DNA from: a virus
Taxonomy: Duplodnaviria; Heunggongvirae; Uroviricota; Caudoviricetes
DNA: 64,000 bases
Virus record (IMG/VR): IMGVR_UViG_3300028886_000034
Span: 54,081 to 118,080 of that record
Strand: one strand, 5' to 3'
Both the position numbers and the translations under genes were made by a program. How positions within the stretch are numbered: position 1 is the stretch's first letter; each line of letters opens with the position of its first letter. The notes beneath the pieces were generated by a model. The model ran no database searches and was not told the origin of the DNA. It worked only from the letters and a program-made list of their open reading frames with translations. Of the stretch, positions 1 through 25,297 are shown piece after piece.

Positions 1-93
1 TATTAGAATGTGACTGGTGGGAGAAGTATAATATTTAAAAATGTAATCTCCTAAAATGGGGAGGTCTTGGTTACATTCTACTCCCCCTAATAT

Positions 94-180
94 AGAGGGT
101 TATCCAAATTGGTTAAGGAACCTGTCTTGAAAACAGGCATACCTGAAAAGGTATTGGGAGTTCGAGTCTCCTGCCCTCTG
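94..180 (+). tRNA. tRNA-Ser (anticodon UGA), class II with long variable arm
   Basis: Hand-folded cloverleaf. The 7-bp acceptor is AGAGGGT/GCCCTCT (one G-U). The D-stem is 3 bp with a GG-containing D-loop. The anticodon stem CCTGT/ACAGG closes loop CTTGAAA. The variable arm is a 5-bp hairpin ATACC/GGTAT. The T-arm is GGGAG-TTCGAGT-CTCCT and the discriminator is G. Confidence 0.65.
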
Positions 181-251
181 TCCTAAACTTACTAAAGTAG
201 TATTAGTAAGAGTTTATAGACTTAGTATTTATTATGAGGAGGAATTTAAAC

Positions 252-389
252 ATGTTGAATTATGCGTTTACTTGGCTTACCGCTGCTAAGAATACTGTAG
301 CTGCTAATCCTATTACTTCCAGTGCAGTTCTTGTAGCTTTGCTTGTTATTATTGCTGGTGTTGTAGTTTATTTTAAGAGAGTTAAGTAA
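252..389 (+). CDS. small hydrophobic protein, 45 aa (single predicted transmembrane helix)
   Basis: ATG at 252 is preceded by GAGGAGG 9 nt upstream. The ORF is below the track cut-off. The product is MLNYAFTWLTAAKNTVAANPITSSAVLVALLVIIAGVVVYFKRVK, with a hydrophobic core and a basic C-terminus. Confidence 0.45.
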   Translation: MLNYAFTWLTAAKNTVAANPITSSAVLVALLVIIAGVVVYFKRVK

Positions 390-414
390 AAACTATTATT
401 TGGAGGTTGAAGCA

Positions 415-1068
415 ATGACTACTGAGAAGATGACTATTCATAAGGCGCTTTGTGAGGTCAAACTTGCAGATAAGAAAATTATGCAGTACACTAGTTTTAG
501 CAATAGGTATGTGGCTGTAAATAATAATCCTACTAATGATAATTTTAGAATTGATGGAATGTCAATTCAGGATTTTAGTTCTAAGGTAAGCAGTAATTAT
601 CAGGCAGTTACTGATCTGATTAGAAGAGTTGATGCTATTAAAGCTGCTATCAGTAAGTCTAATGCTGAAACCATCATTAATGTTGGTGGTAAGGAAATGA
701 CTGTTGCTGAAGCAATTTATCAGATGAAGTATGGGCTTAAGACTAAGAAAATGCTTCTTAATACTCTTCAGACTCAGCTTCAGTTTGCACAGAGTCAGCT
801 TGAAGAGGATACTAAAAAAGCTGAACAGAGACTTGAAAAAACCATTGAGACCCTGTATGGTAATAAGGATAAAACCAATATCAATACAGATGCTATCATG
901 GCCTTTAAGAAAAAGTACAATATGGAGAATCAGCCAGTTCTTATTGATCCTATTGATATTAATAAGAAGATTAACGCTCTTAGTATTGAGATTGATCAGT
1001 TTGAACTCAATGTTGATTCAGCACTTCAGGTTTCTAACGCAACTACCACTATTGAAATTGAGTACTAA
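415..1068 (+). CDS. hypothetical protein (217 aa)
   Basis: The long ORF in the track starts at TTG 400. An in-frame ATG at 415 sits 8 nt after GGAGG (402-406). No recognisable motif. Confidence 0.6.
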   Translation: MTTEKMTIHKALCEVKLADKKIMQYTSFSNRYVAVNNNPTNDNFRIDGMSIQDFSSKVSSNYQAVTDLIRRVDAIKAAISKSNAETIINVGGKEMTVAEAIYQMKYGLKTKKMLLNTLQTQLQFAQSQLEEDTKKAEQRLEKTIETLYGNKDKTNINTDAIMAFKKKYNMENQPVLIDPIDINKKINALSIEIDQFELNVDSALQVSNATTTIEIEY

Positions 1069-1664
1069 GTTTTAGTACTTAAAGATTTGATACTTGGTGA
1101 AAGTTCTAAATACTCTGTTTCATGATTTTCTGAGTATCTTATTCATGTAAAAATAAGAAAGATACTCTCCTAATATTTAGATGACCGCAAAGTTATCTAA
1201 TTATATTTTCACACCTGAAATGTGACGATATAATAACAATGCTTTTCTCTCAATTTTCCTGAGACTAGAAAGCCTTACATCTAATTTCAAATAATAGTCT
1301 TTGATTGATGACTATTTTATCTTGGATTGAGTAAGACTTTACTGAGTAGGGAGTAGTTAGTATTGTTGATTTAGTAGTTAGACCCTATGAAGAGGCTTGG
1401 TCGAACCTCACTTAAGATTTACTTAGTGAAATCACATTAGCTTTAATATAACGTAAACTCGTTCGCTAATAGTAAGTAGCTGGTAATTATTATGTAAATC
1501 TGTGAATAAAGGTCTGTACTATTTAAACAGAGTCTGAGTCTGAACATACCTCACAGCTATCAAGTATCTATATATTTTTCCGCTCATGATCGTTCTCCTT
1601 TGAAGTGGGGAGGAGTACCTCATTACTTCTCTCCACACCTAAAATTTTTTGAACAAATATTGAT

Positions 1665-1736
1665 GGGTCCATAGTTTATGTAGTAAAACAGGAGTCTCCA
1701 AAACTTCAGAACTATCTGCAAGCGGTAGTGGACCTG
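1665..1736 (+). tRNA. tRNA-like, possible tRNA-Trp (anticodon CCA), non-canonical D- and T-loops
   Basis: The 7-bp acceptor is GGGTCCA/TGGACCT, followed by G and an encoded CCA. The anticodon stem GGAGT/ACTTC closes loop CTCCAAA. The T-stem CTATC/GGTAG has an atypical TGCAAGC loop, and the D-loop lacks GG. The fold works but the conserved loop bases are missing. Confidence 0.3.
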
Positions 1737-1760
1737 CCATAAAATTTTTAAAATCACCTC

Positions 1761-1789
1761 TTGACAAATTCTTGTCAGTATGCTTTAAT
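1761..1789 (+). promoter_or_regulatory. sigma70-type promoter TTGACA-N17-TTTAAT
   Basis: The -35 TTGACA is at 1761-1766 and the -10 TTTAAT at 1784-1789, with exact 17-nt spacing. It lies upstream of the tRNA pair at 1934-2107. The same architecture recurs seven more times in the window. Confidence 0.45.
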
Positions 1790-1933
1790 ATCTTTGTTGG
1801 ACATGGTTCATAGTTTAAATAGCAAAATCTCACTGAGTAGTGTTTTCTATGTATGCTTCTAGAGCATAATTAGGAAAATGTGAAAGCTGAAGATCTTAAG
1901 TGCGAGTCTTAAGTGAACCCTTGATAATTTAAC

Positions 1934-2025
1934 TCTGGAGTAGTTTAATTGGAAAAACAGCTGACTTTGGATCAGTAAGTAAAGGGACCTCCTTTCTCAT
2001 CCTCGTTCGAATCGGGGCTCCAGAG
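1934..2025 (+). tRNA. tRNA-like with anticodon UUG (Gln) and an unusually long (24-nt) variable region; CCA encoded
   Basis: The acceptor TCTGGAG/CTCCAGA is 7 perfect bp, followed by G and CCA (2026-2028). The D-arm is GTTT/AAAC with AATTGG in its loop. The anticodon stem GCTGA/TCAGT closes loop CTTTGGA. A 24-nt insert with internal hairpin AAAGG/CCTTT precedes a canonical T-arm CCTCG-TTCGAAT-CGGGG. Confidence 0.35.
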
Positions 2026-2036
2026 CCAGTTCTAAT

Positions 2037-2107
2037 TCCTCCTTAACTCAATAGTAGAGTGGCGGTCTGTTAAACCGTATACGGTGGAGCGTAACCACCA
2101 GGAGGAG
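2037..2107 (+). tRNA. tRNA-Asn (anticodon GUU), atypical T-loop; CCA encoded
   Basis: The acceptor TCCTCCT/AGGAGGA is 7 bp, followed by G and CCA (2108-2110). The D-stem is ACTC/GAGT. The anticodon stem GCGGT/ACCGT closes loop CTGTTAA. The T-stem is GGTGG/CCACC with loop AGCGTAA. Confidence 0.4.
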
Positions 2108-2120
2108 CCATTAAAAATTA

Positions 2121-2147
2121 AATTGTAACCTAAAATGAGTTACAATT
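2121..2147 (+). terminator. perfect 9-bp hairpin (AATTGTAAC...GTTACAATT) immediately after the tRNA pair
   Basis: The inverted repeat is seen directly in the sequence and is followed by an A/T-rich tract. It could be a terminator or an RNA-processing hairpin. Confidence 0.35.
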
Positions 2148-2579
2148 AAAATCCTTTCACCCAAATCAGTGCTTGGGAAATAACAGTAAATAAAGGCTGA
2201 TCTACTTAGAAGATTGTAATGTCTTCATTTGGCATAAGTAGGATAGAAGTCTATTAGGGAATGTAACCCTCAATAAAAATTACCTTGGCTAAGGGATAGA
2301 CTTTATAAAAACTGTTAGAACCTACTACACTTGAGGTAGTAGTTATCCTATGAAACTTAATGTTGAGCCACCTTTAGTAGAAGCTAGAGCAGTGTTGAGT
2401 GGAGGATTCCGGAGAGTTGTCAGGTTACTGCAAGTGGTAAGAAACTGTCATCCTTTGATTGAAAGGGGAAAAGGATTGTAGTACATATATTACGCCCATT
2501 AAAGTCATCGAAAGTACTACACAAATGACCTATTCTTAGGGTCATGTAGATCATATAAATAAGTGAGTCAGTTTTGTAC

Positions 2580-2608
2580 TTGACAAATAACTATACTGCT
2601 GATATAAT
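2580..2608 (+). promoter_or_regulatory. sigma70-type promoter TTGACA-N17-TATAAT
   Basis: The -35 TTGACA is at 2580-2585 and a consensus -10 TATAAT at 2603-2608. It lies about 170 nt upstream of the Thr-Leu-Ile tRNA cluster. Confidence 0.5.
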
Positions 2609-2777
2609 TTTCCTGGATAAAGGTCTTCAGTAAGTAGTTATTGAAAGATCTACACCTTTTAACCATCTATCTATACTATAGCTAAGGATGGAGCACTCTC
2701 TGTTAATCAGAAGTAAAATATAGTATAGAACTTTCCTAAATCTTTTGAGTGATGTAGACTACAAATAAGATTTATTT

Positions 2778-2851
2778 GCCCCTATAGTATAACGGCTATT
2801 ATACTTCTCTTGTAAAGAAGTGATGGAAGTTCAACTCTTTTCCTAGGGGCT
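2778..2851 (+). tRNA. tRNA-Thr (anticodon UGU); CCA encoded
   Basis: The acceptor GCCCCTA/TAGGGGC is 7 bp, followed by T and CCA (2852-2854). The anticodon stem CTTCT/AGAAG closes loop CTTGTAA. The T-stem GGAAG/TTTCC has an enlarged 9-nt loop, TTCAACTCT. Confidence 0.5.
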
Positions 2852-2876
2852 CCATAAAATATAAAAATAGTTAAAT

Positions 2877-2960
2877 GCCCAGGTGGTGGAATAGGTAGAC
2901 ACAAGGGACTTAAAATCCCTTGCCATCTCTGGCGTGGGGGTTCGAGTCCCCCCCTGGGCA
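2877..2960 (+). tRNA. tRNA-Leu (anticodon UAA), class II
   Basis: The acceptor is GCCCAGG/CCTGGGC with discriminator A. The D-stem is 3 bp with a GG-containing loop. The anticodon stem AGGGA/TCCCT closes loop CTTAAAA. The variable arm is a 15-nt hairpin. The T-arm is GGGGG-TTCGAGT-CCCCC. Confidence 0.7.
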
Positions 2961-2972
2961 CCATTATTACAT

Positions 2973-3045
2973 GGACTTGTAGCTCAATTGGTAGAGTAGG
3001 CGACTTATAATCGCCAGGTTCTGGGATCATACCCCAGCGAGTCCA
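2973..3045 (+). tRNA. tRNA-Ile (anticodon UAU); CCA encoded at 3046-3048
   Basis: The acceptor is GGACTTG/CGAGTCC. The D-arm is GCTC-AATTGGTA-GAGT. The anticodon stem GGCGA/TCGCC closes loop CTTATAA. The T-stem is CTGGG/CCCAG with loop ATCATAC. The discriminator A is followed by CCA. Confidence 0.55.
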
Positions 3046-3117
3046 CCATACCTTTGACTTTTAAACTAGTTTACCTAGTTCTTACAAATATAAAACTTAT
3101 AAAAGGAGTGTTTATCA

Positions 3118-3954
3118 ATGTTTACAAAACCTCTTTTGTTGAATGGGGGGAAAGATGAGTATAAGATATACAGAATGACCTTTGCGGAAGCACAAACTTA
3201 TGATTCGACTATTAGTGTTGGGTTTGTTATTAAAAATAAATCTGAAAAATTTAAAATTGTTTTAGTTATAAATGATCGTTTAATTGGTAAACCAGCTGCG
3301 TCAGCTTACGGTACATATGGCAATGGAGACGATCCTTATTATAATACTCCTCCCGATATGGGATGGTTTGAACTAAGAGCATATTGCTCTGATCCTGACA
3401 TAGCCCATTTAGGCTCTTTTTCTATTTATTTTCCATATATCGATCAAACATTTAATTATGACGGAGAAACTTTAACCTATTATGATTATGGTGAAGATTC
3501 ATTTTATAGTATTTATTTATCAAGTAGACCGGCAGATAGCTGTTATAATCGTATAATAGATTTGTTTAACACCTATGTTAGAGAAGACAACAATGATAAC
3601 GTAAGGACCGTTGATATTTCGTATAGAGAAGGTGAAGGCAGATACAAGGGTATGGTGTTAAGGGTTAATAATATATCGGTTGGTGAAAGTGCATATGTTG
3701 AATGGGATTTTGTTCCGTATACAGTTCAACAAACTAGATATCAACTTAATTCTATAACTTTATACTATGATGAAAATCGGGTATATTCTCAGACTTATAA
3801 TAGTTTAACTGCTTCTGGAAGTTGGACAGCTCCAGACCCTGCCTCTGTAAGTGATGTTGGTGAACATACAGTCCGTATAGACTTTCGAGTAGGAATGGAT
3901 GCGTGGTGGCAGAACGAACAATACGATATTTCAAAAACATTTACAGTAACATAA
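3118..3954 (+). CDS. hypothetical protein (278 aa), Tyr/Asp-rich
   Basis: The ORF has an AAAAGGAG Shine-Dalgarno 7-8 nt upstream. No diagnostic motif. Confidence 0.7.
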   Translation: MFTKPLLLNGGKDEYKIYRMTFAEAQTYDSTISVGFVIKNKSEKFKIVLVINDRLIGKPAASAYGTYGNGDDPYYNTPPDMGWFELRAYCSDPDIAHLGSFSIYFPYIDQTFNYDGETLTYYDYGEDSFYSIYLSSRPADSCYNRIIDLFNTYVREDNNDNVRTVDISYREGEGRYKGMVLRVNNISVGESAYVEWDFVPYTVQQTRYQLNSITLYYDENRVYSQTYNSLTASGSWTAPDPASVSDVGEHTVRIDFRVGMDAWWQNEQYDISKTFTVT

Positions 3955-3978
3955 AAGAAAAGAAAGGGTGTAGTTAAT

Positions 3979-4149
3979 ATGTCTGCTAAATACTATCTTA
4001 AAACTGATGAAGGGCATAGAGTTGAGGTTTCTGAGAGCTATTTTGATTCAGTTCAGCAACTTTATGATGAATCAAGTATTTCAGCAACTGGTGATAGCTA
4101 TGGTAATGAGGAAATTGTTCTTTATGTAGACGAAGTTGATATGCCTTAA
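3979..4149 (+). CDS. small acidic protein (56 aa)
   Basis: The ATG at 3979 is preceded by a purine-rich tract, and the ORF is below the track threshold. It is co-directional and tightly spaced with its neighbours. Confidence 0.4.
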   Translation: MSAKYYLKTDEGHRVEVSESYFDSVQQLYDESSISATGDSYGNEEIVLYVDEVDMP

Positions 4150-4159
4150 GAAAGGATTG

Positions 4160-4336
4160 ATGTATAACATGACTGAATGGTATTTTACAGAAGACAGTAC
4201 AGGTACTAGAACAATGGTGAAGAAGAAGGAGTATAAAGATCTTCAGTATCAGAGATTTAAGAATAATGAAGATCCTTATCCACAGAAAGTAGATACTACT
4301 AAACATAACTTGGTAGTGCATACATTGTATGTTTGA
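4160..4336 (+). CDS. small hypothetical protein (58 aa); start uncertain (4160 or 4169)
   Basis: This is the track ORF 4136-4336. AAGGA at 4152-4156 sits 12 nt before the ATG at 4169. Confidence 0.3.
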   Translation: MYNMTEWYFTEDSTGTRTMVKKKEYKDLQYQRFKNNEDPYPQKVDTTKHNLVVHTLYV

Positions 4337-4474
4337 TGTATTCTTTTCCTGGTTATCAGGAGTATTTGATAGTTCAATAAAGTTATTGCCATATATACAA
4401 TACGTAGTTATAATTTTTATAATTGTAATGTTGATAAAAGCTTTTATTTTTGATAAAAATAAATAAGAAAGGAT

Positions 4475-5083
4475 ATGATATTTATGTTGGGTAGTTATGA
4501 GATTCATGTTGTTCCCGGTAAGCTTCCTCAGAAGGTTGCTTCCGCATTTACAGAGATTTTTGGTAATATGGTTGGTGCTGAGTATAATGTGATTGCATAC
4601 CTTGGTAGTAAGGTTGTTTCTGGAGTTAATCATGCTATTCTTGCTACACAGACCATGATTACTGGAAATGATGTTCATAATGTGGTTCTTATTGTTCTTA
4701 ATGAGAAGGATGATAAGTTCAGTATTGTGGAGATTACCAATGTCCTGTCTGACTCTGGTAAGATGGGTGGGGTTCAGATTAATCCTACTACTGATATTCC
4801 TGAAGAGGCCATGAAGGTTCTTGAGGATAATCTTGCTGGATTTGTTGGTAGTAATGTTTCAGTTTTTGCACTTATTGGTACACAGGTTGTCAATGGTGTG
4901 AAGTACGTCTTTGCTGGTGAAACAGAGATGGTGCTTTCTCCTGAGGCTATGACTAAGGGTAATCCTAACAGGGTTGTTCTTATCAGTGTGTATTCCAATT
5001 ACGATAAGATTGAATTCAAGGAGATTCTTGAAGGGGTTCCTCAGCAGGGTCTTCTTGGACAGCCTCTTGGTGAGTGGCCCTAA
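4475..5083 (+). CDS. hypothetical protein with an internal tandem duplication (202 aa)
   Basis: AAGGA lies upstream. Two halves resemble each other: GSKVVSGVNHAILATQTMITGNDVHNVVLIV and GTQVVNGVKYVFAGETEMV...NRVVLISV. Confidence 0.6.
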   Translation: MIFMLGSYEIHVVPGKLPQKVASAFTEIFGNMVGAEYNVIAYLGSKVVSGVNHAILATQTMITGNDVHNVVLIVLNEKDDKFSIVEITNVLSDSGKMGGVQINPTTDIPEEAMKVLEDNLAGFVGSNVSVFALIGTQVVNGVKYVFAGETEMVLSPEAMTKGNPNRVVLISVYSNYDKIEFKEILEGVPQQGLLGQPLGEWP

Positions 5084-5384
5084 TAATAGATAAGCATTGA
5101 CTATAGGTCTATCAGATAGACTACTTAAACTGATCATTTGAGTACTGATATTCCTATAGCCTTTTAAAGAATTAACCATAGGTCTTCGCATCTTCCAGAT
5201 AGCTTAGATACTGATCAACTAAGCAACAGACTTATAAAGCTGCGTATATTCCTATGGCTTTTTAGTTTAAAATTTAATACCTCTCAGAGGGGTGAAATTC
5301 CCCTCAAACCTTTTCTTTTTGACCTGTTTTTTCTTGATTAAAAAAGCAGAGACAATCACCCTTATATAAAGGAGACTACCCATA

Positions 5385-5921
5385 ATGAGTATGGAGAAAA
5401 CAATTAAGTTATTTGATTCAGAGTTTAAAAAAGATAGTGTCAAGATTACTCCATTTGAAGCTAGAAAGCTTTTAGAAATGGAACTAGTTTATTGGGATAG
5501 AGATCAAACCTCTCCCTATAAAGCTAGAGTTTTGGTCTTTAAGTATCCCAATCATTATTACCAATATAAAGAAAGTGGGATAACAAATATGAATATGACT
5601 ATAAATAAATGTGAAAATGTGACTAATAATGCCGAACGTTATTATCAGCCAGAAAATGTTAAGGCTATCAGGGAAACTATTGAAGCTGTAATGAAAAACG
5701 CCGGTAAAACAGATCTTAAAGATATTGACTTGGATATGCTTAGTAGTTGTATTAATGCAACTTTCAATAGAAAGAAACTGTTTTATAAATGGTTTGATGA
5801 GTATATTAATGGTAGTGATTGTTCTGAAGAAGAAAGATCTACTGCTTGTGAGTTTTTAGATTGGGTATTTCTGCATAAGATTGATGGAGATAAAACTGGG
5901 GATTTGTATTTTAAAGAGTAA
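5385..5921 (+). CDS. hypothetical protein (178 aa)
   Basis: The ORF has an AAAGGAG Shine-Dalgarno. Confidence 0.65.
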   Translation: MSMEKTIKLFDSEFKKDSVKITPFEARKLLEMELVYWDRDQTSPYKARVLVFKYPNHYYQYKESGITNMNMTINKCENVTNNAERYYQPENVKAIRETIEAVMKNAGKTDLKDIDLDMLSSCINATFNRKKLFYKWFDEYINGSDCSEEERSTACEFLDWVFLHKIDGDKTGDLYFKE

Positions 5922-5926
5922 CTAAA

Positions 5927-6001
5927 CGGGTATTAGCGCAGTCTGGTTAGCGTATCTGCTTTGGGAGCAGAGGGTCGGAGGTTCAAATCCTCCATACCCG
6001 A
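5927..6001 (+). tRNA. tRNA-Pro (anticodon UGG); CCA encoded at 6002-6004
   Basis: The acceptor CGGGTAT/ATACCCG is 7 Watson-Crick bp. The D-arm is GCGC-AGTCTGGTTA-GCGT. The anticodon stem TCTGC/GCAGA closes loop TTTGGGA. The T-arm is GGAGG-TTCAAAT-CCTCC. The discriminator A is followed by CCA. Confidence 0.75.
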
Positions 6002-6118
6002 CCATTAGAATTTAAAGTAAATATTTTAGTATAAACAGAGAGTCTAAGGAGTGGAGCAAAATCCCTCTTGACTCTCTTATTTTTTTATGGTAATATTTGT
6101 ATGGGTGGTGATTGGTAT

Positions 6119-13888: not shown

Positions 13889-16468
13889 ATGGCTTCACCA
13901 CTAACTACATATATAAGATGGTTAGCTACTGAAGGAAATGTGCCATTTCCAGAGGAATGTAAGTCTCTTAAGATTTCCTCTATTTTAAGTTTAGCTGAAG
14001 AAGATTTTGAAACATCTATTGTATTGAATCAGCTTTTCAATAATCCTTATGCGTATAAGTATTCTATTGAAGATATTGCTAAAGTACATAAGAAGTATAA
14101 CACTATTTATAAGTTTAATTATATTCCTGTTAAACCCGTGTTTCCCAAAATTGAAGAAAAACCTAAAAAGAAAGAAACTGATGTAGTTATTAATAAAAAG
14201 AGTAAATATAAATTGTATAGCTCTAAAGAGAAAGAAGATTCTAAGCCAACTGATGGGTATTCTAAGCCTATGCTGTTTAACTTCTATTCAGACTATGTGA
14301 ATAAGGAATTTGCATATGTTATTAGAGTTGGTGATAAAAGATATATTACTCAGACTGATGATATGGTTATGATGTATACCGGTAAAGATGATTATTTAGA
14401 TGTTCATGATATTGCAGGATTAAAAGGTGAACTGGTACATTATGGTAAAAGAAAATACATTATTGAACAAATTCAGTCAGAATCTTCTTATAAAGCTATT
14501 TATAATGTAGATTTTAATTTGGCTATTCATAAGAATTATCTTTGGAAAAAAGAAAACAAAGATAATCTTGGTCATTATAAACTTAGAGTAAATTATGTTG
14601 ATATTGAGTTGTATCAAGAAGGATATGGTATTATTGACTTTGCTGATATTAAGAAGTCAGCTAGAGTTATTCCCGTTAACTTGATTACTTTGTATGATAA
14701 TTATACTGACAAATATTATACTTTGGTCTATAATTTAAACAAAGCTAAAATTAATACTGAACAAATTAAGGAATATCTTGATTACAAAGATGAGTGTATT
14801 TTCAATGTAGAAATCTTTGATAAAGAAAGTGATATGTTCCTTAAGTTCTTCAGTTTATTGAAAGAATTTGATCCAGATCTAGTATCTGGGTGGAATAGTG
14901 ATGAATTTGATTTACCTTATATTAAGTATAGAGCAGAATTTTTAGGAATTGAACATCCTAAACTGGCTCATAATAAAACTTTTGAAATTGAATATAAAAC
15001 AGTTATGAATAAACATGAAGAGGAAGTTACTTATTGTATTCCTCATATTGGTTATTCTGTAGCACTTGATTATCAAAGATGCTATAAGGAAAGAACTCTT
15101 GGTAAAAAAGAGAATTATAAGCTTGGAACTATTTCTAAAATTGAGTTGGGTATTACTAAACTTGATACTGAAGATGGCATGGATAAAATCTTTAGGGAAG
15201 AACCTGAAAGGTTTATTGCATACAATATTAACGACGTTCATCTTGTAAGAAAATTGGATGAAAAGTTGAAGTATATTGACCTTAATTTTAGTATAGTCCA
15301 GTTGGCTAATATCTCATGGGATAGTATTTATACTACTCTACATATTTGTGATGGGATTCTTTATGAGTATCTTATGGATAGAGATAAAGTAGCCAAAATT
15401 GTTAAAGCTGGAATTGAGAAGAAAAAGTTTGCGGGTGCTTATGTTAGAGAACCAATTAGCGGTGTACATGATTGGTTGGGTGATTTGGATCTTACTTCTC
15501 TTTATCCATACATTATGGCAAGATATAACATTAGTGCAGATACCTATGTAGGAAAAGTTGATACAGATACTGCTAGACAATATATCTTTAATAAAGAAGA
15601 ATTTGTTAATTCCAATACAGATGTAAGTTTGTATTTGAAAGTTCAAGGTATTGAGAGATTGTATAAATTGTCTGCTAAAAGTTTTCATGAAAGAATGCTT
15701 AAGAATGGGTATATTATTACCCAGATTGGCACTATCTTTAAGAAGCATGAAGATAAGCAGTCAGTTCTTTATGATATTGTAGATATGCTCATTAAAAAGA
15801 GAAAAGAGTATAAAGATCTTATGAAGGATAATATTGGTAAAGACCAAATGCTAGTTGACAGATATGATACTATGCAGAAAACAGTTAAGATCATTACTAA
15901 TTCTCTTTATGGTGGTCAGTCCAATATTAGATTCAGATTGTATGATTATGAGGTTGCCAGAAGTATTACTTCTACTGGTAGAGAAATTGCTAAAATCGCC
16001 GCAGTAGTTGCTAATAATTGCATTAATCAAATGATTCAAAATAAATCTAATAAATTTGACCATGTAGATATTCCTTTTGATTGGGATTACCAATCAGAAC
16101 AAGCTCTACCAAATGTAATTTATGGAGATTCAGTTACTGGAGATTCTTTAATCAGAACTGGTAAAGGTAATATAACTATTAAAGAACTTTGGGATATGTG
16201 TGCTTCGGATAATAAAGTGTGGCATTATCTCGGAAAAAATTATATTCAGAATCCTAATAAATGCGTACTTGGATATGATGACAGACTTTATTTCCCAAGG
16301 TATCTGATGAAGCATAAAACTAATAAGAAACTGTATAAGATTACTACTGAATCTGGAAAAACAGTCACTGTAACTGAAGATCATAGTTTGGTAGTAATGA
16401 GAAATAATGTTAAAACTATAATTAAACCAACAGAATTAGTTGTAACAGACCAACTAATCACCTTATAA
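13889..16468 (+). CDS. family-B DNA polymerase, N-terminal gene (palm motifs A, B and first half of C) fused to an N-terminal split-intein fragment (about 112 aa)
   Basis: Pol B motif A is DLDLTSLYPYIM and motif B is KIITNSLYGG. The motif C tripeptide YGD sits at 16121-16129. It is followed directly by an intein block A (SVTGDSLIRTG...IKEL) and block B (VTVTEDHSLVV), then a stop. Confidence 0.9.
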   Translation: MASPLTTYIRWLATEGNVPFPEECKSLKISSILSLAEEDFETSIVLNQLFNNPYAYKYSIEDIAKVHKKYNTIYKFNYIPVKPVFPKIEEKPKKKETDVVINKKSKYKLYSSKEKEDSKPTDGYSKPMLFNFYSDYVNKEFAYVIRVGDKRYITQTDDMVMMYTGKDDYLDVHDIAGLKGELVHYGKRKYIIEQIQSESSYKAIYNVDFNLAIHKNYLWKKENKDNLGHYKLRVNYVDIELYQEGYGIIDFADIKKSARVIPVNLITLYDNYTDKYYTLVYNLNKAKINTEQIKEYLDYKDECIFNVEIFDKESDMFLKFFSLLKEFDPDLVSGWNSDEFDLPYIKYRAEFLGIEHPKLAHNKTFEIEYKTVMNKHEEEVTYCIPHIGYSVALDYQRCYKERTLGKKENYKLGTISKIELGITKLDTEDGMDKIFREEPERFIAYNINDVHLVRKLDEKLKYIDLNFSIVQLANISWDSIYTTLHICDGILYEYLMDRDKVAKIVKAGIEKKKFAGAYVREPISGVHDWLGDLDLTSLYPYIMARYNISADTYVGKVDTDTARQYIFNKEEFVNSNTDVSLYLKVQGIERLYKLSAKSFHERMLKNGYIITQIGTIFKKHEDKQSVLYDIVDMLIKKRKEYKDLMKDNIGKDQMLVDRYDTMQKTVKIITNSLYGGQSNIRFRLYDYEVARSITSTGREIAKIAAVVANNCINQMIQNKSNKFDHVDIPFDWDYQSEQALPNVIYGDSVTGDSLIRTGKGNITIKELWDMCASDNKVWHYLGKNYIQNPNKCVLGYDDRLYFPRYLMKHKTNKKLYKITTESGKTVTVTEDHSLVVMRNNVKTIIKPTELVVTDQLITL

Positions 16469-20753: not shown

Positions 20754-21863
20754 GTGGCTCAGTTAGAATATTGTTTGATAGACGGTAGCATTAAGAATAT
20801 TTCTGAAGTAGTGTCTGGGTTGCATAATTATATCTGCCCTATATGCGGGGAGCCTTTAGTAGCTAAAAAAGGTAATATTGTTGGTCATCATTTTTCACAT
20901 TTACCGAATAGTAAATGTCCAGCTTCAGTTTATGTTCATGGAGAGACTAATTTACATTTAGGCATGAAAAAGATTATTATGGAAACAGGCCTATGTAGGA
21001 TGCCTGAATTAGATATTGATTGGAATGGTAATATTATAAATCCTAATACGCTTAGTATGGGCACATCATATATTAGGATTAAAGAATCAAATTTTTATAA
21101 ATTTAATAAGGGTTATCTTGAAAAAAATTTAAATTGTGCTAATGGGAAATATATTAGACCCGATTTGACATGCTATGATGTTAGTTATGAGGAAATGTTT
21201 GGATTTAATAGCTCTCCATGTAGCGTGTATCTTGAAGTAACAGTAACCCATGGAGTAGATGATGTAAAACTAGATTTAATTAAATCTATAGATACTAATA
21301 ATTTTTATGTTGTAGAGTATGACTTATCTAAAGTAAATAGAGAATCTACATATGACGAATTAAAACAGGCATACTTAAGCGGCAGTATTCCATGCAATTG
21401 GATTCATAGAAGTGGTGAGAGCGACCTAGTTTGTGATAGATCTTATGAATACGCTTTTCGAGTTACAAACGGAGTTAAATGGTATGTAGATAGGTTTTAT
21501 GACAATCTAACTGATGAGGGATTAGATGCTTTAAAAGAGACTGACATTATAGAATATATGGAACAAAAGAAGTTTAAGAATATATTAGAAAATAAAAATT
21601 TTAATGGATTAGATCTAACAAGACAGTGGACATTTTTTAGAAACGAATTTCCAAGGTCGATTGTTACATCAAACGTTAATTTTTGCCCACAATTTCAGGA
21701 CTACCATATAAGGAAAAAGGCACCAGTGATGATTCAGTGCTTATCGTGTAAGCACTGTAAGAGAGCAACTTATTTTAATAGTAATAGCTATCCTAAATTT
21801 ATTATCTTATGTGAAGATAAGACAGCTCGTAATGGATATAAGGTTTTTAATAAAGCCTCTTGA
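20754..21863 (+). CDS. CoiA-like zinc-finger/nuclease family protein (369 aa), GTG start
   Basis: The N-terminal signature YICPICGEPLVAKKGNIVGHHFSHLPNSKC matches the competence CoiA family pattern CPxCx...KxG...HFxH...C. AGAGGG lies 9 nt before the GTG at 20754. Confidence 0.5.
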   Translation: MAQLEYCLIDGSIKNISEVVSGLHNYICPICGEPLVAKKGNIVGHHFSHLPNSKCPASVYVHGETNLHLGMKKIIMETGLCRMPELDIDWNGNIINPNTLSMGTSYIRIKESNFYKFNKGYLEKNLNCANGKYIRPDLTCYDVSYEEMFGFNSSPCSVYLEVTVTHGVDDVKLDLIKSIDTNNFYVVEYDLSKVNRESTYDELKQAYLSGSIPCNWIHRSGESDLVCDRSYEYAFRVTNGVKWYVDRFYDNLTDEGLDALKETDIIEYMEQKKFKNILENKNFNGLDLTRQWTFFRNEFPRSIVTSNVNFCPQFQDYHIRKKAPVMIQCLSCKHCKRATYFNSNSYPKFIILCEDKTARNGYKVFNKAS

Positions 21864-21925
21864 TAAATGTTTTATATAGTATAGTTATGTTATAACAAAA
21901 GACAATTGAGGGGGAAACCAAGGCA

Positions 21926-23410
21926 ATGCAACTTACTGCTAGTTTTAACTTTTATAGAAGACCTGGAAATGAAGAAGTATATGATTGGCTTGTAGAAGCA
22001 TGTACTGTTGCTAAGAATTTGTATAATCAGACACTGTACTATGCTTATGAGTTTAAAGAAGCTTATGACCCGGTTAGAGAACAATATAAAAAAGAAACTG
22101 GTAAGTCTTTTCCTTGGTTTCCAGACGAATACGTTGGTTTTGAAAAACCTGTCGATGATTTTTTTAAAGTAATGAGTTTGAGGAGATATGCCAGTGAACA
22201 AGATGAGAACGGTGAGTATTATACTAAAAATCTTGAGGGTAAAAGTAATTGGGAACTACTTAAAAATCTTGTAGGTAGAGATGCAACTACAGAGGTAATT
22301 AGAACATTACTATCTAAAAATTTAAAATCATATGGAAGATCCCTTGGGGATTGGAGTAGGCACCCGGAAAAATATAAAGGAATGCCAAGAAAGCCCGGTT
22401 TTTATAAAAAAGGAGATCTGTGCCCATTATACTTTTCTGGTACTTCTATTAAAATTAACTCAAAAACTAGAAGTCTTGTGTTTCCTAAGCCGAGGGGAAC
22501 GGATGGATATAATAAAAGCATTTATATCCCACTTCAAAAATTGCCACATAATTCGGAGTATGTAAAAGGAAAAAGAATTGACCAAGTTAGGATAATTCCT
22601 AAAAAAGGATATTTTAAGATTGAAATAATTTATACGTATAATGAATCGGTTCCTAAACTTGATAATAAACGATATCTTAGTATTGATTTGGGTATTAGAA
22701 ATTTTTGTACTATAATTACTAGTGATGATAAACTTAATCCAGTTATCCTTGATGGTAATGCTTTGAAATCTAAAATTAGATTTTATCATTTAATGGTAGA
22801 TAAACTTAAACATAAGATTGAAGTTATTACTGATGAAAATGGGAAGAAAAGACCTAAGCAGTATACTACTAAGAGAATTGAAGCAATGACAAAGAATCAT
22901 ATTAATCGTATAAATTATATCGTTGATGCATATACTAAGTATATTGTTAGATATTGCCTCCATTATAATATTTGTAGAGTTATTTGCGGTTGGAATAAAG
23001 ATATGAAGCAGAAGATCAATACTGGGCATAAAAATAATCAAATTATTGTTAACTTTCCTTTTAAAAAACTACTTGACAAACTCGAATATAAGTGTAAAAT
23101 GAGGGGCATAAGCTTCGAGATTGTTGAAGAGTCTTATACTAGTAAAACAGATCATCTTAGAAATGCTCCCTTGGCTACTAAAGAAGACCCTGAAACTAGA
23201 GATGAGGCTAACTTTGGTAAAAGAATTCACAGAGGATTGTTTTCTTCTGGGGTTGGAAAGTTGGTGAATGCTGATGTAAATGGCGCTATGGGTATTATGA
23301 GAAAAGCAATTCCAGATTTTAGTTGGGTTGGATACCATCCATTTCATCCAGTTAGGATGAGAGTTAAAGACGTAATTGAAGGTCTAAAGTATTCTAAATT
23401 CCCTAAATAA
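21926..23410 (+). CDS. TnpB/Cas12-like RuvC-fold protein (494 aa), candidate compact type V CRISPR effector
   Basis: The RuvC-I motif is LSIDLGIRNF (D254). A TnpB-like helix NHINRINYIVDAYTKYIV follows. The YTSK motif is EIVEESYTSKTDH and RuvC-III is NADVNGAMGI (D450). The gene lies directly upstream of a CRISPR array. No CxxC zinc finger is present, and the usual IxxEDLN position reads VICGWNKDM. Confidence 0.7.
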   Translation: MQLTASFNFYRRPGNEEVYDWLVEACTVAKNLYNQTLYYAYEFKEAYDPVREQYKKETGKSFPWFPDEYVGFEKPVDDFFKVMSLRRYASEQDENGEYYTKNLEGKSNWELLKNLVGRDATTEVIRTLLSKNLKSYGRSLGDWSRHPEKYKGMPRKPGFYKKGDLCPLYFSGTSIKINSKTRSLVFPKPRGTDGYNKSIYIPLQKLPHNSEYVKGKRIDQVRIIPKKGYFKIEIIYTYNESVPKLDNKRYLSIDLGIRNFCTIITSDDKLNPVILDGNALKSKIRFYHLMVDKLKHKIEVITDENGKKRPKQYTTKRIEAMTKNHINRINYIVDAYTKYIVRYCLHYNICRVICGWNKDMKQKINTGHKNNQIIVNFPFKKLLDKLEYKCKMRGISFEIVEESYTSKTDHLRNAPLATKEDPETRDEANFGKRIHRGLFSSGVGKLVNADVNGAMGIMRKAIPDFSWVGYHPFHPVRMRVKDVIEGLKYSKFPK

Positions 23411-23520
23411 ACAGGGGATGTATTTGGGTAAGTTTGGCAAACCCATTTAAATAAGATCATCAGAATCAGCGATGTGAATTTAAATAAAGTTAATGAAAAT
23501 TAACTGCCTCCGGATTTATT

Positions 23521-23542
23521 CGGATACGATACTTTTTATTTG
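23521..23542 (+). ncRNA. candidate tracrRNA anti-repeat
   Basis: The segment CGGATACGATACTTTTTATTTG can pair with the repeat 3' half CAAATAAGGGTATCGTAT. ATACGATA pairs with TATCGTAT (8 bp) and ATTTG pairs with CAAAT (5 bp), linked by A-U and G-U pairs. It lies between the effector gene and the array on the same strand. Confidence 0.4.
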
Positions 23543-23621
23543 TTTTTACGTATGGAAAATGCTGTTTTTTACAACTGAATATTGAATAAACTCAGTATTT
23601 GTAAGAGTTTGCGTATAGGAT

Positions 23622-24247
23622 ACTATACGGTACTTACAAATAAGGGTATCGTATAACAAAAGAAGATACAACAGACGATAAAAAAGAACTATACGGTACT
23701 TACAAATAAGGGTATCGTATAACATGATATTAAAGAGTATGCTGATTTGGGTGACTATACGGTACTTACAAATAAGGGTATCGTATAACTCTAACTATTA
23801 CTGCTATTACCTCATCATCACTATACGGTACTTACAAATAAGGGTATCGTATAACGCTATCTTCTTCCTGCATGGTCCATCACATACTATACGGTACTTA
23901 CAAATAAGGGTATCGTATAACAGTGATGTAAAAATGAAATTTAATGATGTTACTATACGGTACTTACAAATAAGGGTATCGTATAACAGACATTTTAAAC
24001 ATGAGTATTTTAGCACTATACGACACTTACAAATAAAGAGTATCGTATAACTTGACGTGCTCTTTCAGTTCTGGTATACTCACTATACGTTACTTATAAA
24101 TAAGGGTATCGTATAACTATGAGCTTTTGGAGTAGTGGAATTGTTTTACCATGTGGACTTACAAATAAGAATATCGTATAATTGATACCTGATTAGTATT
24201 GTATTGCCCATACTATACAGGACCTACAAATAAGAATATTGTGTAAT
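23622..24247 (+). CRISPR. CRISPR array with 10 repeats (35-36 nt; consensus A-CTATACGGTACTTACAAATAAGGGTATCGTATAAC) and 9 unique spacers of about 28-31 nt
   Basis: Repeats begin at 23623, 23689, 23755, 23821, 23887, 23953, 24016, 24083, about 24149 and 24213. The first six are identical and the last four are progressively degenerate. The AT-rich leader is therefore at the 5' side (23410-23620). Confidence 0.85.
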
Positions 24248-24249
24248 TA

Positions 24250-24278
24250 TTGACAAAGTATGCCGAGTCTGATAGAAT
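24250..24278 (+). promoter_or_regulatory. sigma70-type promoter TTGACA-N17-TAGAAT
   Basis: The -35 is at 24250-24255 and the -10 at 24273-24278. It abuts the last degenerate repeat and precedes the intein-C/polymerase gene. Confidence 0.5.
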
Positions 24279-24301
24279 CATTATATGGGTGGTGAAGGAA
24301 A

Positions 24302-25297
24302 ATGAAGATAGAGAGTGTTAAATCAATAGAAGTGATTACTCCAGAAGAACCTATTGATGTATATGATATTGAAATGCCAGATGATGATCATTGTTTTTTT
24401 GCAAATGACATATTAGTTCATAATACAGATTCAATTTTTACTAAATATGGCGATGCATTGAAAGCAATTTATGGAAAAGATTATGATGAAATTTCTGACA
24501 AGGAAAAGATAGATAAAGTTATTGAATTGAATGAATCTGTAGCACAGTATATTAATAATGTAATGATTCATGAACTTCTTAATATGCATAATACATCTCC
24601 TACAGAATCTTCGGCTAAAAAGTTTAACTTTAATTTTAAACAGGAACTTGTTATTAGAAGAGCTTTGTTTCTGGAAATCAAAAAGAAGTATGCTATTTGG
24701 TTAGTTTCCAAAGAAGGAAAGCCTTTGGATAAAATCAGTATTAGTGGTATAGAAGTTGTAAGATCTGATTATCCTCAATTTAGCAGAGATATGTTAAATG
24801 ATTTTATTGAGCATATCCTTAAGAAAGGAATCAGTAAAGAAGAGCTTACCACTAAGATTGATGATTATAGAGGTAGATATGTTGAGCAGTTAAAAACAGG
24901 TACAGTTTATTGTGCTATTCCAAGTTCTTGGAATAAAGAAAACTATGCCCAAGATAGACTGCCAAGATCAGTTAAATCTATGTTGGTATATAATGCAATT
25001 TATGGAAGTACCTTTAGAGTAATGGATAGAGGCTATAGATTTGACTTGGAAGAAATTGATATAGGTCAATTTGATTCAGATACACAAAGACGCTTGACAG
25101 ATTTAGTTCGATCTGGTACAATGGGTAAAGAAGGTAAGTTAGATTGTATTACTATTCCTACTAATGGTACATTAGATTTAACTAAGTTTAGAATTAATTA
25201 TAATAAAATGCAAGAATTTGCAGTTGATGATCGTATTTCTAATTTTTGTGATATCTTTGGGATTAAAGTTGATGATCCTAATGATATAGGTTGGTAG
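24302..25297 (+). CDS. C-terminal split-intein fragment (about 41 aa) fused to the C-terminal part of family-B DNA polymerase (rest of motif C plus thumb)
   Basis: The intein blocks F/G end in VYDIEMPDDDHCFFANDILVHN. The C-extein follows immediately and starts TDSIFTKYGD, which completes YGD|TDS. The KKRY-type motif EIKKKYAIW lies downstream. An AAGGA Shine-Dalgarno precedes the gene. Confidence 0.85.
   Translation: MKIESVKSIEVITPEEPIDVYDIEMPDDDHCFFANDILVHNTDSIFTKYGDALKAIYGKDYDEISDKEKIDKVIELNESVAQYINNVMIHELLNMHNTSPTESSAKKFNFNFKQELVIRRALFLEIKKKYAIWLVSKEGKPLDKISISGIEVVRSDYPQFSRDMLNDFIEHILKKGISKEELTTKIDDYRGRYVEQLKTGTVYCAIPSSWNKENYAQDRLPRSVKSMLVYNAIYGSTFRVMDRGYRFDLEEIDIGQFDSDTQRRLTDLVRSGTMGKEGKLDCITIPTNGTLDLTKFRINYNKMQEFAVDDRISNFCDIFGIKVDDPNDIGW

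Follow-up and report, generated by a model that had tools for sequence, protein, structure and literature searches.

Transposon-CRISPR intermediates, known as TranC, have been described (PMC13565253; bioRxiv 10.64898/2026.03.27.714800), and their clades include one from Caudoviricetes (10.64898/2026.03.27.714800). Forty provisional branches of CRISPR-associated TnpB, V-U* (V-U6 to V-U45), were mined from JGI, NCBI, and NCBI WGS (PMC10691335), and phage-borne, miniature, TnpB-derived type V systems have already been published as the “hacker” Cas12p (bioRxiv 10.1101/2025.01.20.633832) and as Cas12r (10.64898/2026.04.20.719267). We analyzed a 64,000-nucleotide stretch of phage DNA (the window) for which a sequence-only reading had proposed an undescribed phage-borne effector lineage. 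That proposal held insofar as no named Cas12 subtype model claimed the protein (NCBIfam, PADLOC, and PDB profile searches), but its kind was already in the literature as Cas12p, Cas12r, TranC, and V-U*. The locus seems to add a new lineage to an established kind instead of founding one; it matches none of the named subtypes compared and is set apart from Cas12r by the description of the latter.

The locus resembles TranC in its TnpB-sized effector, far more like the TnpBs of transposons than like classical Cas12 (the nearest readable members being of the IS607 type), in its short downstream array, 36-nt repeats, and lack of adaptation genes, and in carrying, between gene and array, a tracrRNA-like scaffold that includes an anti-repeat. 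LaTranC (9jfq) is nevertheless unlike the effector, giving no family-profile sequence match at E ≤ 1 and a structural match at rank 35. Cas12r, from Thermus Lalka phages (10.64898/2026.04.20.719267), is likewise a phage TnpB-derived nuclease encoded among replication genes, with a short array, degenerate distal repeats, gene-proximal spacer addition, no adaptation genes, and targets in integrative mobile elements of bacterial genomes. It differs in its length (564 aa), its thermophile-specific TnpB branch, its 29-bp repeats, and its independence of a tracrRNA, whereas the window, apparently from a rumen metagenome, encodes 494 aa with 36-nt repeats and an anti-repeat that co-varies with them. 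Cas12p (10.1101/2025.01.20.633832; PDB 9jfs) is also a rare phage-borne miniature Cas12 near TnpB that uses a tracrRNA and a crRNA, but its length is 500 to 700 aa, its PAM is GTN, and it requires host thioredoxin; it gave no sequence-level match to the effector and ranked 24th in Foldseek (TM about 0.38). The family profile matched none of the PDB sequences of Cas12p, Cas-lambda, Cas12m, or Cas12o at E ≤ 1, and their Foldseek ranks fell below those of Cas12f and TnpB; Cas12j, Cas12n, and Cas12r were absent from the Foldseek structure matches.

When an AF2 model of the effector (pLDDT 84.5) was searched with Foldseek, the nearest structures were AsCas12f (8dzj/8j3r, TM 0.57 to 0.67) and TnpB (ISDra2/ISFba1; 8h1j, TM 0.63 on the target), with which it shares the WED-REC-RuvC-TNB plan. 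The gene-tracr-array order is also that of Cas12f, yet Cas12f carries a C4 zinc finger in its TNB domain and acts as an asymmetric homodimer on one guide, while the effector lacks the zinc finger. Closest in sequence were the IS607 TnpB/omegaRNA (OMEGA) systems, whose TNB is also cysteine-less (36% identity over the full length to the IS607-type TnpB P0121). They differ from the window, which has no serine recombinase, a single-copy fixed phage locus, a CRISPR array with a tracr in place of a single-guide omega-RNA, and an effector longer by about 67 residues, found in the N-terminal two thirds (aa ~45 to 100, ~186 to 200, and ~300 to 310) and in the TNB region. The type I-F CRISPR-Cas of ICP1, directed against PLE, follows a similar biological logic, in that a phage turns CRISPR on an element lodged in its host's chromosome, but it is class 1, has its own adaptation genes, and uses an entirely different type of effector.

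The phage setting proposed earlier was borne out by matches to tail sheath, tail fibre, family B DNA polymerase, DnaB-like helicase, SSB, and ThyX genes. The phage clade is AT-rich, and INPHARED held no near-identical phage DNA. As had also been claimed for the full 64 kb, no match to Cas1, Cas2, or Cas4 was found among the 73 ORFs of at least 90 aa in the window (PADLOC, E ≤ 1e-3). The features of the locus are collected in Table 1; its array abuts the DNA polymerase B fragment in every relative that is complete at that point.

Table 1. Features of the effector locus, in positions of the window
Feature	Positions	Strand	Basis or remark
Effector gene, 494-aa TnpB-derived RuvC nuclease (Cas12/TranC-like)	21926..23410	+	ATG start, TAA stop
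Promoter-like site inside the ORF	23073..23100	+	TTGACA-16-TAAAAT, 11/12
tracrRNA-like conserved structured non-coding region, stop codon to anti-repeat end	23405..23560	+	RNAalifold, covariance model
Anti-repeat, degenerate nearly full-length inverted copy of the repeat	23524..23556	+	ATACGATAC-TTTTT-ATTTGT-TTTTA-CGTATGG
AT-rich leader	23557..23621	+	Same leader in L004 and L051
Second, shorter anti-repeat-like segment, in the leader	23590-23608		Complementary to repeat loop and 5' half
CRISPR array, 10 repeats of 36 nt and 9 spacers	23622..24247	+	Repeat search, relatives' arrays
Repeats 1 to 6	23622-23657, 23688-23723, 23754-23789, 23820-23855, 23886-23921, 23952-23987		Identical copies
Repeats 7 to 10	24015-24051, 24082-24117, 24147-24182, 24212-24247		Degenerate
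Promoter-like site 3' of the array	24250-24278	+	
Split-intein DNA polymerase B C-terminal fragment	24302-25297	+	ORF/profile matches

The array had been read as ten repeats of 35 to 36 nt from 23623; ten 36-nt repeats (ACTATACGGTACTTACAAATAAGGGTATCGTATAAC) were recovered, and their coordinates move the start to 23622. The division into six identical and four decaying copies was reproduced, as was the uniqueness of the spacers (nine, 27 to 30 nt). Self-complementary repeat ends allow a 10-bp stem. The sequence-only reading had also raised the alternative of a common dispersed repeat, yet the repeat was seen solely in loci of the effector family, whose spacers differ between lineages. Its placement of the leader on the 5', gene-proximal side agrees with a pair of relatives, L004 and L051, in which the second array exceeds the first by a single repeat-spacer unit next to the leader, the leaders themselves being identical, pointing to the gene-proximal side as the leader end. 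Between the window and L001, the proteins are 99% identical and zero spacers are held in common.

The anti-repeat claimed earlier was located between gene and array. Its duplex with the cognate repeat was predicted by RNAduplex at -28.2 kcal/mol, versus -14.5 +/- 2.8 for shuffled repeats, and its best partner was the cognate repeat in all four lineages tested, including L007 with its different repeat, so that the two co-vary. For the tracrRNA-like region as a whole, compensatory changes affected 13 of the 27 pairs given by RNAalifold; 82.7% of cells were paired, against 29 to 47% with partners slid, and none of 500 shuffles reached as high. Folded together with repeat 1, the region had a z-score of -4.8. 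A covariance model of it (R1) matched the loci of the family exclusively (72 to 157 bits); neither the omega-RNAs of the IS607 outgroups nor the loci of 39 phage TnpBs gave a significant match, and no Rfam family was found within 21000-25000. Duplex energies and G-U pairs between repeat and anti-repeat gave a strand preference that was inconsistent between lineages. As for transcription, both hexamers of the promoter-like site inside the ORF are the same in six lineages, including L007, while neighbouring synonymous sites vary; this hexamer conservation spans only 4 synonymous sites, making the site a possible, if weak, candidate for the start of a transcript carrying tracrRNA and pre-crRNA.

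From these features we infer that a tracrRNA is expressed and required. A version in which crRNA alone suffices would take the 10-bp hairpin of the repeat as the handle, as in Cas12a, Cas12j, and Cas12r, and the upstream region as a leader or regulatory element. It would account for the compensatory changes between lineages in the self-complementary repeat ends and for the failure to find a canonical promoter or terminator bounding a separate tracrRNA, and it has a precedent in Cas12r, a phage TnpB-derived effector that works without one (10.64898/2026.04.20.719267). We nonetheless consider it unlikely: the nearly full-length anti-repeat co-varies in four lineages, among them L007, whose repeat has no hairpin, and about 120 nt of compensatory stems lie 5' of the anti-repeat, at the position of the tracrRNA in Cas12f and TranC.

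The 494-aa ORF with its TnpB/Cas12 motifs is present as first described, with LSIDLGI at aa 251 to 257, YTSK at 404 to 407, and NADVNGAMGI at 448 to 457. The profile check suggested with that description placed the protein above the curated cut-offs of NCBIfam NF040570, “RNA-guided endonuclease TnpB family” (112.9 bits; cut-off 100), and Pfam Cas12f1-like_TNB (38.5 bits; cut-off 26.3), and under that of Pfam OrfB_IS605 (27.1 bits; cut-off 30.5). Cas12f profiles were not passed (NCBIfam Cas12f2, 37.4 bits versus a cut-off of 450), and the Cas12f models of PADLOC gave partial matches only (E 1e-9 to 1e-11). The catalytic residues D254, E402, and D450 are unchanged throughout a 64-sequence alignment. 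Sequence and predicted structure together indicate a bona fide TnpB/Cas12 fold with its RuvC D/E/D triad intact, and the protein would presumably act as a nuclease.

That it should instead be an RNA-guided DNA binder or repressor, silencing a rival element independently of nuclease activity in the style of Cas12m, Cas12c, or TldR, seems to us very improbable. Small TnpB derivatives have repeatedly turned into binders (PMC11013384, PMC10705468), and the TNB zinc finger of the effector is degenerate: the YTSK region is part of a TNB domain without zinc-finger cysteines, and there are zero cysteines from RuvC-II to RuvC-III. The same loss, however, is seen in the closest ordinary TnpB relatives (alignment consensus), and the RuvC motifs surrounding the triad are as invariant as the triad itself. 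The half of the protein comprising RuvC-II, TNB, and RuvC-III is its best-conserved part, at 82 to 93% identity even where overall identity is 52%. Since synonymous-site conservation in this C-terminal half of the gene is only mildly elevated, the conservation appears to lie mainly at the protein level rather than to come clearly from an overlapping RNA.

The effector family is tiny, with an array downstream of the gene in each of six diverged relatives. Relatives were found only in ENA or Logan assemblies and in one GenBank rumen MAG contig; IMG/VR yielded none, just TnpBs of at most 37% identity with no array beside the gene. The V-U* survey (PMC10691335) could have reached the MAG contig. 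Relatives at 99, 85, 80, and 52% identity all have a downstream array, and in the 77% relative, L006, one repeat is visible before the contig ends; no relative with enough downstream sequence lacks an array, and the spacers are lineage-specific. An array of its own at the same position in every diverged homologue found argues that the pairing with the gene is not chance. Repeat and spacer lengths are 36/30 nt in most lineages and 28/33 nt in L007, and the anti-repeat follows the repeat through this switch; gene, tracr-like region, and array are inherited together.

Protospacers were found for spacers of the sister systems. In five metagenome contigs, a RecE-like exonuclease gene contains a match to spacer D1 of L004/L051, at 1 to 5 mismatches. 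Two spacers of L007, G1 (1 mismatch in 33) and G9 (4 in 34), match sites next to each other in the gene neighbouring the D1 target, on the same element and the opposite strand; both strands of this foreign DNA are thus matched. The matches begin exactly at the inferred repeat-spacer junction. The targeted genes match the phage exonuclease VIII and RecT families and are located next to chromosomal metabolic genes, and the recombination module is carried on 50%-GC bacterial contigs, versus 32% GC in the related phages. Target contigs of 66 to 230 kb include Ga0256405_10000142, Ga0256405_10000804, and Ga0129307_1000420. At these three protospacers of two diverged sister systems, the 5' flanks all end in AA and the 3' flanks have no common feature, which fits the type V orientation and suggests a short 5' PAM, candidate NAA, from three sites matched by spacers of sister systems. 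The targets hence appear to be phage-like elements integrated in bacterial chromosomes. This element was missing from IMG/VR and from plasmids and had only marginal similarity to known phages.

None of the nine spacers of the window had a protospacer of its own; the sole sign was spacer 7 (24052-24081), which overlaps the D1 target site at the level of the encoded peptide, with wobble-only divergence. The window spacers had no match elsewhere in the window at up to 7 mismatches. Nothing significant was obtained with 20 concatenated spacers against cultured phages, with exact 22-mers of W4, W7, F1, and A1 against IMG/VR, or with a wobble-degenerate W7 pattern against IMG/VR and JGI metagenomes, and a peptide-level comparison of the remaining spacers with the target loci gave noise only.

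Two further readings, either a mini-array serving host Cas effectors beside an unrelated TnpB-like gene or an RNA-guided homing device that spreads an endonuclease-rich island between related phages, have together very little to recommend them. The 36/30 and 28/33 geometries do resemble different host CRISPR types, and the slot of the locus collects homing endonuclease genes (HNH, LAGLIDADG, and CoiA-like). Against them stand the joint inheritance of gene, tracr-like region, and array, with an anti-repeat tracking its repeat across the change of geometry, the location of the protospacers in the foreign 50%-GC element, and the lack of any spacer match to the available related phage DNA (window and sister contigs, self and cross).

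The ancestry of the effector points to transposons. Ordinary TnpBs matched at 1e-56 to 1e-79, and a cliff in bit score separates the family members (817 and above) from TnpBs (284 and below). Arrays next to the gene were absent from the next-best 39 TnpBs of the alignment (IMG/VR) and from the four nearest outgroup TnpB loci. Two outgroups, P0121 and P0006, lie directly behind a serine recombinase (Resolvase), the IS607 arrangement; the IS607 call rests on these two loci, the upstream DNA of P0122 and P0123 ending at contig ends. The effector appears to sit within the TnpB lineage, not in a classical Cas12 clade, and was recently derived from it, probably from the IS607 type. Although a generic TnpB profile was the top match and the closest relatives are transposon TnpBs, we give almost no credence to an ordinary IS607/IS605 TnpB-omegaRNA transposon copy beside unrelated or dispersed repeats, as no TnpA (serine or Y1) was found in the window or at the relatives' loci, the gene is single-copy at one syntenic phage site, and an array confined to the family's loci has been kept, with lineage-specific spacers of which some match foreign DNA.

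We therefore regard it as likely that the phage encodes here a minimal but functional type V CRISPR system of recent TnpB, probably IS607, origin, dependent on a tracrRNA, cutting DNA, and serving in conflict between mobile elements. Under this explanation, the 494-aa RuvC nuclease would be loaded with 5'-repeat-spacer-3' crRNAs from the + strand of the array, most likely through a tracrRNA of about 150 nt encoded between gene and array, whose 3' anti-repeat would pair with the repeat to form, in effect, a split omega-RNA. The complex would then cut double-stranded DNA complementary to the spacer beside a short 5' PAM (candidate NAA), its targets being rival mobile elements, the phage-like elements of bacterial chromosomes. 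New spacers would be inserted at the gene-proximal leader, presumably by the adaptation machinery of the host, as cas1 and cas2 are missing from the phage.

Being compact and apparently active, and having a definable scaffold and a candidate short PAM, this RNA-guided nuclease is a candidate miniature editor. The family also offers a natural series from TnpB to CRISPR effector, comprising a transposon outgroup at 36% identity, five or six descendants, co-evolving repeat and anti-repeat, and two geometries, and it indicates that such systems hide in assemblies outside IMG/VR and JGI. It is quite possible, though we propose it tentatively, that this is an independently evolved type V lineage as yet without a name, probably descended from an IS607 TnpB and confined to one AT-rich, apparently rumen, phage clade. 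Its nuclease half would be nearly frozen, while the half that recognizes RNA would be exchanged along with the tracrRNA anti-repeat and the repeat, including the switch from 36/30 to 28/33 nt, letting the phage draw on the adaptation systems of different hosts against the same family of resident elements. The same inter-element conflict was proposed for one thermophilic phage group in the Cas12r work (10.64898/2026.04.20.719267); the present family adds an in silico case of phage CRISPR aimed at chromosomally integrated elements, in which two diverged phage lineages would hit one recombination module.

The effector locus is most simply explained as a type V system of the "TranC" kind that evolved recently. 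The sequence-only reading had described a 494-aa TnpB/Cas12 ORF followed by ten repeats with unique spacers; this anatomy was confirmed, with repeats 1 to 6 identical and repeats 7 to 10 degenerate as it had said, save that the array starts at 23622 rather than 23623, and its interpretation as a minimal phage type V-like CRISPR system was supported. The nine spacers (27 to 30 nt) are each unique, and none had a second copy in the window at ≤7 mismatches. A repeat block devoid of unique spacers, the case named there as contrary, was not what we found: the window and family contig L001, whose effector proteins are 99% identical, had no spacer in common.

Coordinates of the effector locus, its surroundings, and related loci (window positions unless a contig is named)
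Feature	Position	Strand	Detail
Effector ORF	21926-23410	+	494 aa
Promoter-like hexamers	23073-23100		TTGACA-16-TAAAAT
Noncoding stretch	between effector ORF and array	+	211 nt
Anti-repeat	23524-23556		scaffold 3' end
Leader segment	23590-23608		complementary to repeat loop; shorter than anti-repeat
CRISPR array	23622-24247	+	ten copies of ACTATACGGTACTTACAAATAAGGGTATCGTATAAC; period ~66 nt
Spacer 7	24052-24081		
Polymerase N-fragment	13889-16468		intein splicing domain, aa 760-857
Polymerase C-fragment	24302-25297		
Nuclease slot	20754-21863		L001, 6306-6896; L006, 2870-5238
tRNA cluster	93-6004		seven genes
CTA-anticodon tRNA	1827-1920		ARAGORN label "Pyl"
L001-L003 repeat			identical to window repeat
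L004 and L051 repeat			CCTATACGATACCCTAAAATACAGGTATCGTAGGAC
Spacer D1	L051, 2290-2319		
L005 repeat			CCTATACGATACCTTTAAATAAGAGGTACGTATAGC
L006 repeat			one repeat, then contig end
L007 array	L007, 3047-3624		CATTCTTCCGTATACGTAGGGATGATCC, 28 nt, unrelated to window repeat; spacers 33 nt

Searched against TnpB and Cas12 profiles, as had been proposed, the effector exceeded the curated thresholds of the NCBIfam "RNA-guided endonuclease TnpB family" (112.9 bits versus 100) and of Pfam Cas12f1-like_TNB and fell under that of Pfam OrfB_IS605 (27.1 versus 30.5 bits). Subtype assignment by the Cas12f2 model failed (37 bits versus a cutoff of 450), and the PADLOC Cas12u3 and Cas12f models matched with partial coverage (E of ~1e-11 to 1e-12). 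In a 64-sequence alignment, D254 (SIDLG), E402 (EESYTSK), and D450 (NADVNGA), which by established TnpB/Cas12 motifs we take to be the RuvC-I, -II, and -III catalytic residues, were invariant; the effector's TNB segment between RuvC-II and RuvC-III contained no cysteines, as was also the case for the closest ordinary TnpBs. The AlphaFold2 model (pLDDT 84.5, pTM 0.78) was closest in fold to AsCas12f (TM 0.57-0.67) and the ISDra2 and ISFba1 TnpBs, with Cas12p, Cas12m, Cas12o, LaTranC, and Cas-lambda ranked below; PDB sequence relatives of the family profile were all remote (E of 4e-17 to 1e-8) and all TnpB or Cas12f.

Among 5.8 billion protein clusters, the effector had relatives at 99, 85, 80, 77, and 52% identity, after which came ordinary TnpBs of ~410 aa at ~36%; when HMMER was run exhaustively over 1.84 billion representatives, scores fell from 817 bits for the family cluster to 284 for the protein ranked next. 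An array lay downstream of the effector on every family contig, and none adjoined TnpB at 39 IMG/VR TnpB loci of 28-37% identity or in the four nearest outgroups. At one IMG/VR phage locus, L037, a 3-copy regularly spaced repeat (~7846) lies ~1.1 kb downstream of TnpB. Both outgroups with readable upstream DNA, P0121 and P0006, have a serine recombinase directly before TnpB, as IS607 elements do. P0121 aligned at full length (36% identity), the effector having ~67 extra residues, inserted partly within its first two thirds (aa ~45-100, ~186-200, and ~300-310) and partly in the TNB region. L007, carrying the 52% relative, has 28-nt repeats and 33-nt spacers versus 36 and 30 in the window; its protein is 82-93% identical to the window's in the RuvC-II/TNB/RuvC-III half versus 28-47% in the N-terminal half, a pattern suggesting that the RNA-recognition half was exchanged as a module with repeat and anti-repeat.

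From the effector stop codon to ~23560, a region with several predicted stems was conserved in all lineages. Compensatory changes were found in 13 of its 27 predicted pairs, 82.7% of cells were paired versus 29-47% with partners slid by 1-3 columns, and none of 500 shuffles reached the observed covariation, for five sequences from which the structure itself was derived. A covariance model of the region matched the family's loci only. The claimed anti-repeat was also real: the scaffold ends in a degenerate copy of nearly the whole repeat, inverted rather than direct because the loop segment reads ATTTGT versus ACAAAT. By RNAduplex, cognate repeat/anti-repeat pairing was best in all four lineages (-28.2, -27.8, -32.2, and -29.1 kcal/mol, versus -12 to -27 for noncognate pairs and ~-14 for shuffled repeats), and therefore the anti-repeat has tracked the repeat, including its replacement in L007. 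A crRNA-only mechanism may operate, given that the repeat is self-complementary and can form a 10-bp stem. As to a joint transcript of scaffold and array, the promoter-like hexamers within the effector ORF, near the sigma-70 consensus, could be its start; their nucleotides are identical in all six lineages, in a stretch with few synonymous sites.

The leaders of L004 and L051 are alike except for one T in a T-run, and L051 has one extra repeat-spacer unit between leader and L004's first unit. An extra leader-adjacent unit is what acquisition at the leader end classically leaves behind, and we would attribute the difference to it; the alternative is loss of one unit. This leader-proximal unit and the distal repeat decay place the leader on the gene side, as the sequence-only reading had it, and support transcription of the array from the + strand.

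Searches of the window with all nine spacers, of cultured phages and the target contigs, and of IMG/VR and JGI metagenomes with a subset of the spacers, found no protospacers for the window's own spacers. Spacer 7 shares an 11-mer with D1, a spacer of L004 and L051, and the complementary strands of both encode PELKE, their differences being confined to third codon positions. When D1 was made degenerate at wobble positions and used as a search pattern, it picked out five JGI metagenome contigs (L052-L056; ≤230 kb, ~50% GC), all with the D1 target gene at 1-5 mismatches to D1. Independently of that retrieval, two L007 spacers matched the neighboring gene on these contigs, G1 with 1 mismatch in 33 and G9 with 4 in 34, at adjacent sites on the strand opposite to D1's. 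Matches start exactly at the inferred repeat-spacer junctions. The overlap on the PELKE codons and the targeting of the next gene by L007 therefore indicate that several lineages converge on one recombination module, and the presence of protospacers on both strands points to DNA as the target. The targeted genes encode a RecE-like DUF3799/PD-(D/E)XK protein matching phage "exonuclease VIII" (E of 6e-80) and a phrog_2554 protein, and adjoin genes for a RecT-like annealing protein and an LPD28 protein. Because the surrounding genes are chromosomal and metabolic (asparaginase, DctM transporter, argininosuccinate lyase, HMGL-like enzyme), the target is a phage-like element integrated into a bacterial chromosome, one not found in IMG/VR, PLSDB, or cultured phages. 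The 5' flanks (TGAA; GGAA or GCAA; CCAA) suggest a candidate 5'-NAA PAM, three sites sharing any one dinucleotide by chance at ~0.004 with two diverged effectors pooled; the three protospacers had no common 3' flank.

The window is phage DNA, encoding tail fibre, tail sheath, family B DNA polymerase, helicases, SSB, ThyX, and seven tRNAs. PADLOC models detected no Cas1, Cas2, or Cas4 among its 73 ORFs of ≥90 aa, in agreement with the claimed absence of their genes, and the effector was the only Cas12-type match. Other PADLOC matches were to an orphan DNA methyltransferase (E of 2e-54), PbeA-like models (~1e-11), and a homing endonuclease model (2e-8). Family loci run from ThyX through variable small nuclease genes, effector, and array to the polymerase C-fragment. 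A split intein divides the polymerase between two genes: the N-fragment ends in the splicing domain, and the N-terminus of the C-fragment runs through HCFFANDILVHN into TDS. The ~7.8 kb between them holds the CRISPR module along with other genes, among them ThyX and a CoiA_N-like nuclease. Nuclease genes vary in the slot upstream of the effector (HNH_3 in L001-L003 and L006, the CoiA_N-like protein in the window), which resembles a homing-endonuclease island; in L006, ThyX itself carries a LAGLIDADG insertion and reaches 591 aa. The CTA-anticodon tRNA is an amber suppressor, and TAG may be recoded in part of the phage; the effector ORF, whose stop codon is TAA, is uninterrupted under the standard code. 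L051 (CACXFL010000100.1, 3,020 bp) was binned in the MAG "uncultured bacterium RUG11211" and is phage module throughout (effector, complete 7-repeat array, polymerase C-fragment); mis-binning of a phage fragment is probable, and the bin could hint at the phage host.

Capture of TnpB by CRISPR arrays is a recurrent event: V-U* comprises 40 provisional branches (PMC10691335), TranC clades have arisen from both IS605 and IS607 (PMC13565253; 10.64898/2026.03.27.714800), and published phage-borne miniature versions include the Cas12p "hacker" (10.1101/2025.01.20.633832) and TranC9 of Caudoviricetes phages (10.64898/2026.03.27.714800). The nearest biological parallel is Cas12r of Thermus phages (10.64898/2026.04.20.719267): its array is short and gains spacers next to the gene, adaptation genes are lacking, and the spacers are directed at integrative elements. 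Because TnpB-derived and phage-borne miniature systems are already published, the family appears to be a new lineage within a kind already described, and it may coincide with an unnamed V-U* branch or a numbered TranC clade; the suggestion of an undescribed phage-borne effector lineage would hold for the lineage and not for the kind. The finding is interesting, yet unsurprising for a specialist.

In the TranC-type account, an ancestral TnpB, probably of the IS607 type, would have shed its recombinase and taken up a fixed position in the phage genome, where a tracrRNA-like scaffold and a CRISPR array would have taken over the function of the omega-RNA. Because the phage has no adaptation genes, spacers would presumably be taken up through host Cas1-Cas2; the switch in repeat and spacer geometry between lineages fits such host-dependent uptake and is not proof of it. 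The phage would turn the system on resident or competing mobile elements.
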